From IMG/VR virus record IMGVR_UViG_3300047444_000753, positions 69,256 through 133,255 of that record: DNA of 64,000 nucleotides; one strand, given 5' to 3'. The stretch's first letter is position 1; the number at the start of each line of letters is the position of its first letter. The notes below the pieces were generated by a model. That model worked only from the letters and a program-made list of their open reading frames with translations. It was not told the DNA's origin and made no database searches. This DNA is from a virus (lineage: Duplodnaviria; Heunggongvirae; Uroviricota; Caudoviricetes). Below are positions 9,963 to 31,178 of the stretch, one piece after another. The position numbers were made by a program, and so were the translations under genes.

Positions 9963-10192
9963 TCGAGATCCTGCTGCTGAGCATTCTGGGGTTGGCTGCT
10001 GCGGGCTACGCGGGGCTCTGGCTCTGGAGCCGCAGGCGGAACCGGCGTCTGGCTGCCGAGCGGGCGCTGAGGGTGTCCCAGACATGGGGCGACATCCTGC
10101 GACGGGAACAGCACGAGAGGTTCAACGCCGAGTTTCTGGAGGCGCTGGGGGATGACCGTGAGGAGTTCCTCAGACACTGGAGGGGGGAGTAA
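9959..10192 (+). CDS. membrane-anchored protein
   Basis: N-terminal TM then basic stretch; GGAGG RBS. Confidence 0.75.
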   Translation: MIEILLLSILGLAAAGYAGLWLWSRRRNRRLAAERALRVSQTWGDILRREQHERFNAEFLEALGDDREEFLRHWRGE

Positions 10193-20628: not shown

Positions 20629-20813
20629 TGCAACTTTTGTAAGTAGGGGTGGTCAGGGGTGGTCAGAGCTCCTCTGTGGGAGAAACCCCCGGCGTGTTTC
20701 AGATGCCGAAAACGATTTCCACCTCAACAAAAACCAATTTTCGATACGTTAGTTGACATCTATGTATGTATAAGATATACTTGATACATACCCAACGAAA
20801 GGAATCAAAGACT

Positions 20814-21977: not shown

Positions 21978-22048
21978 AAAAAAAAGACCCAGAGTGGGCC
22001 TTCCCCGGGACCCGTCTCAGGGCCCCTATCATGTTCGGCTTCCGCCTA
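21978..22048 (-). ncRNA. putative small RNA (family 1, copy A)
   Basis: Minus-strand TTGACA(22084)-N18-AATAAT, three hairpins, T8 tract; no ORF; homologous to 23221-23296. Confidence 0.5.
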
Positions 22049-22238
22049 TACTCAATTATTGCATACAAAATACACACGTGTCAACCCCTAAACCAGACTT
22101 GCGTATCAACATATACCCGTGTACAGTATAGGTATCAGCAACGGAGTAAGGGCCACGGGCCAGACTCAACCGGCGCTGACCAACACTTTACAGGTCCCAA
22201 CGCCTGACCGCTTATCCGCTAGCCCAAGGAGTCTTATA

Positions 22239-23152: not shown

Positions 23153-23220
23153 CCTAAACAAATATCCCCCGGCGCTACGGCGTCCGGGGGTATTTGCGTT
23201 GCAATTTTTGCAACGGGCCT

Positions 23221-23296
23221 AAAAAAAAAGGGTCAGACTCGGCCTACCCCCCGACCCCGCTGCAGGGCCGATATCTACGGGCTGCTTGCCCGTCTA
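23221..23296 (-). ncRNA. putative small RNA (family 1, copy B)
   Basis: Minus-strand TTGACA(23331)-N18-TAGAAT, hairpins, T9 tract; no ORF. Confidence 0.5.
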
Positions 23297-23421
23297 CTTC
23301 AATTCTAAGGCATAACGTATACAGATGTCAAGCCCAAAAGAAATAAAAGATTATCGGGTTTAGGGCTTGCGTAGGGGTTTACATGCATGTATAGTAGATA
23401 TTACCAACGAAGGAGAACATC

Positions 23422-25382: not shown

Positions 25383-25580
25383 ATGGCAGAGCTTCAGGCA
25401 TCCATTGAGGTCACTAGTTCCCGGTTCACTGATGCACGGCGGGTACGAATCGTAGTAGACAGTATCACGGCGGTTGGAGATGAGGCCAATGGACGTGGCT
25501 TTATCACCACTGCGGGTGGTCAGCATTTTACTGTCATGGAGTCCTATGACCAAATTTTGGCGAAGATAGCCGCCGCCTAA
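25383..25580 (+). CDS. hypothetical early protein
   Basis: AAGGAG RBS. Confidence 0.8.
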   Translation: MAELQASIEVTSSRFTDARRVRIVVDSITAVGDEANGRGFITTAGGQHFTVMESYDQILAKIAAA

Positions 25581-25660
25581 CCGACGCGGGCGGGCCTTGC
25601 AAAAGTTGCAAGAGCCCGCCTAGCCGGTGGGTTGACAAGCCTGTATCTTTATGCGAGAAT

Positions 25661-25782
25661 TGAAACATGAAGCGGATATCCCCGGGAGGGATAAGCAGGG
25701 AAACCAGAGCTGCCCTAAAACGGGGCGGGTTATTTTTGGGGTCCTCTGGTGACCCAGCTTCAATCGGTTGCTTCATACTTCA
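25661..25782. ncRNA. convergent pair of homologous short transcripts (family 2)
   Basis: Plus TTGACA(25632)-N17-GAGAAT and minus TTGACA(25811)-N17-TAAAAT, both followed by TGAAnn-ATGAAGC. Confidence 0.45.
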
Positions 25783-25898
25783 ATTTTACAGACAACATAC
25801 ACAGATGTCAAGCGAAAAGAAATATTGGTTTGGACTTGCGTGAGGCTGTACATGGGTGTATAGTAGAGGTATCAGCAAGGGACAACCGAGGAGTCAAA

Positions 25899-26231
25899 AT
25901 GACTGCATGGATCATCACCAAAGACAAGATCGAATCTGACGCCAAGGGCGTGACCGGCCCGGGTATGGCGACGGACAACGACGTCAAGCGCCTGCAGGCC
26001 GGTGAGGGCGTCCGTTTCCGGATGCTGGACGACGACGGCGAGATCTATTACTACGGGCGGCAGCTGGAGACGTCGGACTGCACTGGGGCCTATGAGGATG
26101 GGTACTACGGAGCCGAGTCGGAATTCGCCCCACTGGATAACTTCGGACGTCCCAACGCCGGGTGCACCGAGATCCAGTTTGACCGGGGCGCAAAGGACGC
26201 CAAGGGCAAAGTGATCTGGGAGTCTTTGTAA
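25899..26231 (+). CDS. conserved-type phage early protein
   Basis: FRMLDDDGEIYYYG...FAPLDNFGRPNAGCTEI motif; promoter and RBS. Confidence 0.85.
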   Translation: MTAWIITKDKIESDAKGVTGPGMATDNDVKRLQAGEGVRFRMLDDDGEIYYYGRQLETSDCTGAYEDGYYGAESEFAPLDNFGRPNAGCTEIQFDRGAKDAKGKVIWESL

Positions 26232-30601: not shown

Positions 30602-30669
30602 CGGGTGTGTCCCGGCCTCACAAGGGCCGGGGCAGCCGGCTTGACAAGTGTGTATGGTGTGGGTAAGCT

Positions 30670-30740
30670 TGAAGCATGAAGCCCACGGGAGCAGGGTCAC
30701 CGGAGCTGCCCGAAAATAAACGGGGGGTGTGAGGGCATGA
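30670..30740 (+). ncRNA. third copy of family-2 short transcript
   Basis: TTGACA(30641)-N17-TAAGCT-TGAAGC-ATGAAGC...AGCAGGGTCACCGGAGCTGCCC; ends at bidirectional terminator near 30740-30765. Confidence 0.45.
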
Positions 30741-30769
30741 AAAAGCCCCGCCGTAGCGGGGCCTTGGGG

Positions 30770-31063
30770 CTAGAAGCCCTTGATGCAGATTGGGCCGATA
30801 CCCTGAGCAACGGATGTCGGGTCCGTCAGCGTCCGTCCGCAGATGAGGCAGACACCCGTCCGGCGTCCGTATTCGGCTGCTTGCTCTTTGGTCATCCGAG
30901 TCTCGGGACGAAGGTTGAAGATTGCGCCCTTGTCATATTCGAACTTGCCCGTGTTGGTGTCGAGCTTCATGGCGTACAGGTTGCCCGATACCTTAGCGGC
31001 CTGAACCTTGAAGGCTCCAGCGTTGCAAAGGTAGAAACCGGGGGTGACGTTGATCTTGGCCAT
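30770..31063 (-). CDS. DUF6011-like zinc-binding protein
   Basis: CLICGRTLTDPTSVAQGIGPIC; AAGGAG RBS; own promoter. Confidence 0.85.
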   Translation of the reverse strand: MAKINVTPGFYLCNAGAFKVQAAKVSGNLYAMKLDTNTGKFEYDKGAIFNLRPETRMTKEQAAEYGRRTGVCLICGRTLTDPTSVAQGIGPICIKGF

Positions 31064-31178
31064 TTTGACTCCTTGGTTGTTTCTTGCTGATGTATCAATT
31101 ATTGCATGCAAGATAGACAGCTGTCAAGCACTGGGCAAAAGAAAATCCCCGCCCTATTGGACGGGGACTCTCGGGGGT

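Follow-up and report, generated by a model that had tools for sequence, protein, structure and literature searches.

Results

A head-on pair and a single unit in the early region

The window analysed here, a stretch of 64,000 nucleotides with ~58% G+C, was taken from an IMG/VR virus record of 158.6 kb, in which it spans bases 69256-133255, and its closest cultured matches are phages of Arthrobacter globiformis. Within it, a gene at 25383-25580 is followed by a GC hairpin (25587..25625, plus strand) with a TTGCAAAAGTTGCAA palindrome in its loop, and directly downstream of this hairpin stands the promoter of a short plus-strand unit, unit A (25632..25660; -35 TTGACA at 25632-25637, a 17-nt spacer and -10 GAGAAT at 25655-25660; 10/12 in the promoter scan). 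The predicted 72-nt transcript of unit A (25667..25738) starts with ATGAAGC (25667-25673), scores 52.9 bits against the covariance model described below and comprises, all on the plus strand, an optional hairpin TATCCC/GGGATA (25677-25693), a core GCAGGGAAACCAGAG (25695-25709) and a terminator hairpin (25710-25728) with a T-run to 25738, the last recognised by a terminator scan and by comparing its fold with shuffles. Unit B faces it from the minus strand: a promoter at 25783..25811 (-35 TTGACA at 25811-25806, a 17-nt spacer, -10 TAAAAT at 25788-25783; 11/12) precedes a predicted transcript (25700..25776, start at 25776, 3' end putative; 57.4 bits) with ATGAAGC at 25776-25770, the core GCTGGGTCACCAGAG at 25758-25744, and GACCCC plus an A-rich tract at 25743-25729 that forms the complement of the unit A U-run; past ~25738, unit B is antisense to unit A. 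The third unit, unit C, lies on the plus strand, with a promoter found by pattern matching (30641..30669; -35 TTGACA at 30641-30646, a 17-nt spacer, -10 TAAGCT at 30664-30669). Its -10 hexamer scored under the cut-off of the promoter scan, and several family members elsewhere use the same hexamer. The predicted transcript of unit C (30676..30762, start at 30676; 53.9 bits) contains the core GCAGGGTCACCGGAG (30691-30705), followed by a hairpin GCCCG/CGGG with an A-rich loop, and runs into the hairpin GCCCCGC-CGTA-GCGGGGC (30745-30762), which is the terminator of a convergent minus-strand gene (30770-31111) and has no U-run on the plus strand used by unit C.

A preliminary description of this DNA had reported three units with a common promoter, ATGAAGC at the predicted start and a shared block GCWGGGNNACCRGAG, and this was borne out. 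A degenerate 42-nt pattern composed of the -35, a spacer motif, the -10 and ATGAAGC matched exactly three sites (25632-25673 on the plus strand, 25811-25770 on the minus strand and 30641-30682 on the plus strand), where 100 shuffles gave an expectation of 0.00. A regular-expression search of the 158.6-kb record yielded no fourth copy, and the covariance model had no match in the window besides units A, B and C. Units A and B are indeed arranged head-on, with predicted starts at 25667 (plus) and 25776 (minus) that span 110 bp, and in all three units the ATG sits, as had been stated, at the usual start position, 6 nt past the -10 hexamer.

Downstream of the pair lies a gene that we refer to as Y, with a promoter-like site TTGCGT-N17-TATAGT (25836-25864, plus strand) and a coding region at 25899-26231 (plus strand; 110 aa, phrog_12268). 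The Y family comprises 148 clusters in a protein search and 131 viral loci by tblastn, and shares the conserved motifs FRMLDDDGEIYYYG and FAPLDxFGxPNAGCT; no Pfam family was found for Y, and a Foldseek search of the PDB with its AlphaFold model (pLDDT 77.6) returned nothing at E<=0.001. All Y homologues start with MTAWIITKDK behind AGGAG. The open frames that run across the units (25534-25776, minus; 25667-25843, plus; 25749-25898, plus), one of which forms an apparent N-terminal extension of Y from GTG 25749, are most likely non-genic, and ORFs called across the units, such as those of 80 and 58 aa at 25534-25843, are most likely spurious.

The region is dense in promoters, with 27 sites in the promoter scan where 6.6 were expected. 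A TTGACA-N4-TGTAT promoter subclass occurs at 19 sites of the window (0.36 expected), for example at 20753, 22084, 31492, 33225, 34650 and 35176; it is common to the present units, to several minus-strand early genes and to a second group of small RNAs, family 1, which is represented in the window by two minus-strand units (21978-22084 and 23218-23331) with starts near 22049 and 23296. In relatives, a TTACAAAAA(T/A)TGA(A/T)T-type motif stands ahead of each early promoter cassette, as at 1444-1460 and 1556-1572 of the Arthrobacter phage Talia1610 (L137), 1405-1421 of the phage Racecar (L138) and ~1396-1409 of L002; it appears equivalent to the TTRYAA-N3-TTRYAA palindromes of the window, one of which lies at 25597-25611.

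A family of units in large soil phages

Units A, B and C belong to a real and hitherto undescribed family of short transcripts with predicted promoters, here called family 2, whose carriers are large soil phages of Arthrobacter-type hosts with the units placed among early genes. A covariance model built from 25 units recovered 33 full units with 30-73 bits from 20 sources, representing ~15 phage contigs, which supports and extends, at the level of predicted RNAs, the earlier reading of the units as a small RNA family. Members are present in the IMG/VR contigs G000-G006, in metagenome contigs and in Talia1610, with 2-4 copies per genome inside 5-11 kb; Racecar and Talia1610 contain diverged forms as well, which have no ATGAAGC. 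Scanning IMG/VR and metagenome contigs with sequence patterns yielded promoter-bearing members and a few chance matches within genes, which we discarded. Controls with reversed patterns gave 0 matches, and over-strict patterns gave none in IMG/VR.

BLAST searches with the short units found the Arthrobacter phages Talia1610, Racecar and Mimi, each time at sites without an annotated feature, and a B-like query found nothing real. The element is unannotated in the records of Talia1610 and Racecar, both of which were cultured on Arthrobacter globiformis. In Talia1610 (PQ559666.1), the matches at 10095/184567 and 16018/190490 are separated by a constant offset of 174,472 bp, indicating that both copies lie in a long direct terminal repeat together with small early genes. 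A search of the locus DNA against 50,697 phage records returned only generic terminator or promoter matches, and a scan of bacterial genomes with an overly loose core pattern only chance matches among those listed. No Rfam 15 family matched anywhere in the window at gathering thresholds; at E<=10, the segment 25560-25900 gave two chance-level matches only, mir-7177 (15 bits; gathering threshold 86) and CRISPR-DR9 (14 bits; gathering threshold 45). Neither a tRNA nor a tmRNA was found, and literature searches yielded no description of the element.

Conservation of the first transcribed nucleotides

In all 33 units a NANNNT -10 hexamer stands exactly 6 nt before the ATG, an arrangement seen at 5.4% of random positions, and in 22 of the 33 the -35 is within two mismatches of TTGACA (0.7% at random positions). 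Many copies have this -35 in or beside an upstream GC hairpin with a T-run, and the hairpin that precedes unit A recurs in the same layout in L250, L253, G004 and G006. Within subtypes, pairwise identity amounts to 41-51% for the promoters, 100% for positions +1..+7, 70-92% for the 21-nt core and ~30% beyond 40 nt after the core, yielding an identity peak from +1 to ~+45 that falls off on either side. The exception is a set of four closely related A-type copies, which are 77-86% identical throughout (promoters 77%). As the promoters have diverged while the first ~45 transcribed nucleotides were kept, selection appears to act on the transcribed part rather than on the promoter, and it is therefore unlikely that the main point of the units is to serve as RNA polymerase sinks, as had been considered at the outset.

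The consensus of the conserved module reads 5'-AUGAAGC, a variable linker or hairpin of 6-21 nt, and then GCWGGGNNACCRGAGG(N)SCC. Its core consists of a GGG-N11-CCC frame around an SD-like (A/G)GAGGA and is followed by an A-rich tract, which is T-rich in four copies. The peptides previously quoted for units B and C are correct, as is the statement that unit A contains the shared block in another frame. Among 25 units, the core lies in frame 2, 0 and 1 relative to the ATG in 16, 5 and 4 cases, respectively, and even the orthologous A-type copies of G000, G004 and G006, with linkers of 21, 19 and 20 nt, cover three frames. Six B-like copies are identical over their first 24 nt, with zero synonymous variation, in genomes whose protein Y is only ~28-35% identical to that of the window. 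The encoded peptides range from 13 to 80 aa, with neither lengths nor stop positions conserved. A conserved micropeptide is thus ruled out by the three reading frames and the unconserved stop positions, and the examination of relatives for a single kept frame came out in favour of the earlier view that conservation is at the level of the RNA and not of the peptide.

A role of translation as such is a separate matter. The units could be leaderless micro-ORFs or translation elements, in which the 5' AUG recruits 70S ribosomes and the function resides in short basic peptides (MKLRRQGNQRTPK...), in translation as such or in ribosome capture; in a variant of this idea, the internal SD-like GAGGA and the A-rich tract would form a ribosome-binding decoy. 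A +1 ATG is a leaderless-mRNA signal in an actinobacterial host, and here the ATG is invariant at the predicted +1 in 33/33 units. Moreover, 16 of the 25 units share one frame (QGNQRTPK), which four long-linker forms keep, and the core resembles the early 5' UTRs of the window phage, where an A/C-rich ACCA run is followed by AGGAG, as in the Y UTR GCAAGGGACAACCGAGGAGTCAAAATG. This has to be set against the occurrence of all three frames even among orthologous A-type copies, the spread of peptide lengths with stops that are neither conserved nor positioned by a downstream gene, the absence of synonymous changes among the six B-like copies, and the fact that no ORF starts after the SD-like motif in any of the 33 units. 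In addition, the diverged variant of Racecar and Talia1610 as well as family 1 do without the ATG, and we consider a translational function rather unlikely.

Two types of early 5' UTR can be distinguished between 18000 and 36500 of the window. The first, ACCAAC(A/C)A(A/G)(A/C)A-AGGAG-N6-8-ATG, follows TATGCT promoters, and the second, (GA)TACATCAGCA(A/G)G...CCA-AGGAG, follows TGTAT-type promoters.

The core was also considered as the ribosome-binding site of a hidden gene, which we reject, since in none of the 33 units is the GAG motif followed, at a distance of 4-14 nt, by the start codon of an ORF of at least 30 aa.

A predicted terminator within the head-on pair

It had been stated that no terminator lies between units A and B. 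We do find one: on the plus strand, the hairpin CTGCCCT-AAAAC-GGGGCGG (25710-25728) is followed by GTTATTTTTG to 25738. It has a folding energy of -11.5 kcal/mol compared to -5.4 in shuffles (z = -2.9), and hairpin plus TATTTTTGGGG are kept in the A-type orthologues of G004, G006 and L250. Unit A is accordingly predicted to yield a 72-nt RNA that ends near 25738 and, alone among the three units, combines the features of an intrinsically terminated small RNA gene, namely a promoter, a short transcript, a GC hairpin and a U-run. On the strand of unit B, two G-U pairs of this hairpin turn into C-A mismatches and there is no U-run, suggesting that unit B, for which no terminator is evident, would read through in antisense across unit A. 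The proposed complementarity of the two RNAs consequently hinges on unit B: it would be realised if B reads through, and it would be limited to the overlap with A (<=72 nt) if A terminates.

These features bear on the suggestion that the pair constitutes a switch resembling a type I toxin-antitoxin system, which our results do not support. No conserved toxin-like peptide is present, the encoded peptides of 13-80 aa being basic, not hydrophobic, and spread over three frames. Unit A is self-terminated, the A and B RNAs are homologous rather than designed complements, and the module also occurs singly or as a gene leader. With regard to an antisense RNA as such, A and B would overlap upon read-through of B into the terminator region of A, and most members of the family have no facing partner.

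The geometry of the pair could also reflect a cis-antisense control element or a ColE1-type RNA-primed origin, such that pairing of the A and B RNAs or collision of polymerases sets the level of B, which in turn primes replication or silences upstream genes. The starts are 110 bp apart, with A terminated and B not, a layout reminiscent of RNA I and RNA II of ColE1. Furthermore, the whole A/B locus is an imperfect palindrome, by virtue of which B would be fully complementary to A upon read-through, and actinobacteriophages have been reported to use noncoding-RNA-dependent origins (PMC7157519). Such a function would leave unexplained that most copies are single or leaders without a facing partner, that other facing units stand 500-600 bp apart around a gene with no overlap past the terminator, and that each genome carries several copies. 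Neither an AT-rich unwinding region nor a replication gene is found nearby, and predicted duplex energies of A or B with family-1 RNAs are not clearly better than those of shuffles, making this explanation quite improbable. Trans pairing between families 1 and 2 was likewise tried and rejected, given that shuffles were as good in 1-3% of cases for unit B and in 11-36% for units A and C.

Recurrent layouts around genes Y and W

The head-on A/B pair recurs in G004, G006 and L250, and in G004 this pair is accompanied, at a distance of 4.4 kb, by a single C-like unit orthologous to unit C. A family-1 RNA with a promoter of its own takes the place of the facing partner in G003, G005 and Racecar, and the 10-kb locus of Talia1610 looks like a pair of family-1 and family-2 units with a putative partner promoter. 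Close relatives have at the same site either the A/B pair (G000, L250), a family-1 unit in the place of B (L253) or nothing (L254). The diverged variant of Racecar and Talia1610 joins a family-1-like 5' end to a family-2 core, raising the possibility, on sequence grounds, that families 1 and 2 may form one superfamily. Gene 22 of Racecar (MN234206.2, 10692-10844, 50 aa) overlaps its facing family-1 unit and may be a mis-call.

A second layout brackets a gene. In G001, G002, G003, L105 and L128, Y is preceded at 146-165 nt by an a-type unit, and beyond the Y terminator a further unit faces the gene, which is B-like in G001, G003, L105 and L128 and D-like in G002; L054 has the upstream unit only. 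In G005 the bracketed gene is W instead of Y, and in Talia1610 an a-type unit stands before W. Gene W, of a second family of small early genes (88-91 aa, with an LTG(E/K)GI(V/T)FF motif; L007 5745-6020, minus strand, and L137 1658-1921, plus strand) thus replaces Y behind the a-type unit and a conserved leader in G005 and as gene 37 of Talia1610. Over its first 45 nt, unit B matches the B-like units facing Y or W in G001, G003, G005, L105 and L128, and since unit B is an orthologue of these bracketing units, the A/B pair of the window looks like an empty bracket just upstream of Y. An obligatory partnership with Y was rejected: among 80 other viral loci that carry Y, 78 lack a unit in the 1.5 kb around the gene, and unit and Y are linked in this phage clade only.

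The a-type copies occupy a leader position, being co-oriented with Y or W, which starts ~150 nt further downstream with no clear terminator in between. This position would suit an antitermination leader of the put or nut type, in which promoter-proximal RNA acts in cis on the polymerase to permit read-through of early terminators. The module is placed immediately 3' of the promoter, and a GC hairpin whose loop is A-rich, resembling boxB, is present in some copies. Yet unit A lies directly ahead of its own terminator, units B and C are directed towards gene blocks in antisense, the hairpin lacks conservation (49% paired), and the cargo genes have their own promoter between unit and gene, so that we regard antitermination as very improbable.

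Primary sequence rather than a proven fold

An RNA structure had been implied for the units, but covariation in its support was not found in the model-fitted alignment. RNAalifold returned only two invariant G-C pairs, which close the linker, with a covariation term of 0, and the covariation score was 0.049, compared to a shuffle mean of 0.059. The proposed 3' hairpin pairs in 49% of the alignment cells, whole-unit folding is no more favourable in sense (z = -0.73) than in antisense (z = -1.07), and hairpin stability relative to shuffles averages z = -0.4 (P1) and -1.3 (P3). None of the elements of a conserved fold that we tried, an optional 5' hairpin, a mini-hairpin with a GNNA tetraloop and a 3' hairpin with an A-rich loop, passed these tests. 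Compensatory-looking stems (GACCCAC/GTGGGTC, GACGGC/GCTGTT) are isolated cases, and no base pairs kept by compensatory changes, as expected for a structured noncoding RNA, were detected. It is therefore at the level of primary sequence, and not of a proven fold, that the +1..+45 element is conserved.

This lack of RNA covariation and of strand asymmetry in folding would be accounted for if the element acted at the level of DNA, either as a protein-binding site (an operator or roadblock by which these promoters are controlled) or as the sequence at which a mobile regulatory cassette recombines and thereby shuffles small early genes, with the inverted copies resembling cassette ends. Presence or absence at one site among close relatives, variation of the bracketed cargo between Y and W, and the interchangeability of A-rich and T-rich tracts after the core would fit as well, and promoter/stem-loop cassettes of T4-type phages are known to mediate shuffling (PMC2839356). 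What makes a DNA element unlikely, in our view, is the 6-21 bp between its two conserved boxes, which would be awkward for a fixed site on duplex DNA, together with its strict locking to a promoter +1, always in the transcribed orientation. Divergence of the promoters with retention of the transcribed part is the opposite of what recent cassette spread would produce, and neither target-site duplications nor a recombinase were seen.

Discussion

In our best reading, the units are early noncoding RNA modules and a common factor recognises them, a mechanism we infer from conservation and layout and to which we assign about an even chance. Whether the predicted transcripts function at the RNA level is, by our estimate, similarly balanced. 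Each unit would be a self-contained early transcription module with a host sigma-A/sigma-70-type promoter and an RNA whose first nucleotide is the A of ATGAAGC. Its initial ~45 nt would constitute the functional, conserved part, acting as RNA without translation into a conserved peptide. Unit A would give rise to an RNA of 72 nt that stops at the intrinsic terminator of the unit; unit B, on the other strand 110 bp away, would read antisense across A, and transcription of unit C would proceed into the terminator that serves the convergent gene block. Units A and B could then be viewed as two tail-to-tail small RNA genes, equivalent to the Y/W bracket of related phages and here empty.

In such a scheme, the same 5' module would be put to three uses, standing alone as a free RNA, opening a gene leader or forming one half of a convergent pair. 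As the paired RNAs are paralogous and not complementary, this reuse favours a common trans-acting partner, and the module may thus be the recognition sequence for one such partner, be it a protein, the ribosome or another RNA, for which free copies would compete with leader copies in the manner of decoys. More tentatively, and as a possibility to which we give less credence, the 45-nt 5' module, probably together with its family-1 relatives, might be a portable RNA tag of early expression and host takeover in large actinobacteriophages that is read by a dedicated factor of phage or host: leader copies would subject Y or W to this factor, free and convergent copies would compete or insulate, and pairs would permit the swapping of cassettes.

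What is known of phage small RNAs comes for the most part from a few model phages, and the early regions of large phages contain much unannotated intergenic DNA. Family 2 provides a sharply defined, promoter-locked element in cultured and easily handled phages of Arthrobacter globiformis. Its reuse as free RNA, leader and head-on partner, combined with the link to family 1, offers a system for studying early noncoding transcripts in host takeover, which also bears on facing small RNA genes as insulators or regulators of cassettes and on the exchange of early cassettes. Annotation is corrected at the same time, with regard to the most likely spurious ORFs across the units and perhaps to gene 22 of Racecar.

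Several known systems share features with family 2. Phage lambda OOP is a single-copy antisense RNA directed at one mRNA (cII). Unit A is comparable in its predicted RNA of ~70 nt, its constitutive-type promoter, its intrinsic terminator and its position among early genes, and units B and C are comparable in being antisense to neighbouring genes. Unlike OOP, family 2 is a multi-copy family with a shared 5' module, no defined antisense target and additional use as a leader. In coliphage 186 pR/pL and in ColE1 RNA I/RNA II, a defined operon or primer located downstream is under the control of the pair. There, as here, strong promoters ~110 bp apart face each other, one product being short or terminated and the other potentially complementary, but in the window neither B nor C is followed by anything in sense orientation, the RNAs are paralogous, and the module also occurs alone. 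Family 1 shares with family 2 the promoter type and the promoter-to-terminator unit of ~70-80 nt; it differs in having neither ATGAAGC nor the ACCRGAG core, and instead contains an internal hairpin that is well supported (CGGCCC/GGGGTCG), along with a strong U8-9 terminator.

Among actinobacteriophages, Cluster K mycobacteriophages contain start-associated sequences (SAS), 5'-GGGATAGGAGCCC, which precede start codons by 3-7 bp and for which a role in translation is suspected (Pope et al. 2011, PMC3203893). Both are orientation-specific repeats in the non-structural half of an actinobacteriophage genome with GGG...CCC around an SD-like purine run, although the resemblance is loose: the family-2 element has a GGG-N11-CCC frame, occupies a fixed place at +20..+45 relative to its own promoter and has a 5' AUGAAGC, and in none of the 33 units does the motif precede a start codon that opens an ORF.

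The PeSL (promoter-early stem-loop) cassettes of T4-type phages (Arbiol et al. 2010, PMC2839356) are like family 2 in being short, repeated intergenic modules with strong host-type promoters and stem-loops, located among small non-essential early genes and differing in presence and cargo between close relatives. Family 2 has the repeated sigma-70-like promoter and terminator stem-loop in a hyperplastic early region by which such cassettes are recognised. Relatives have a pair, a single unit or no unit at one site, and Y or W as cargo, differences that may or may not stem from recombination between copies. PeSL elements are, however, defined by their terminator stem-loop and promoter, whereas family 2 is defined by the first 45 transcribed nucleotides, with promoters and hairpins varying around them. 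Family-2 units moreover flank genes as inverted convergent copies, and their hosts are Actinobacteria.
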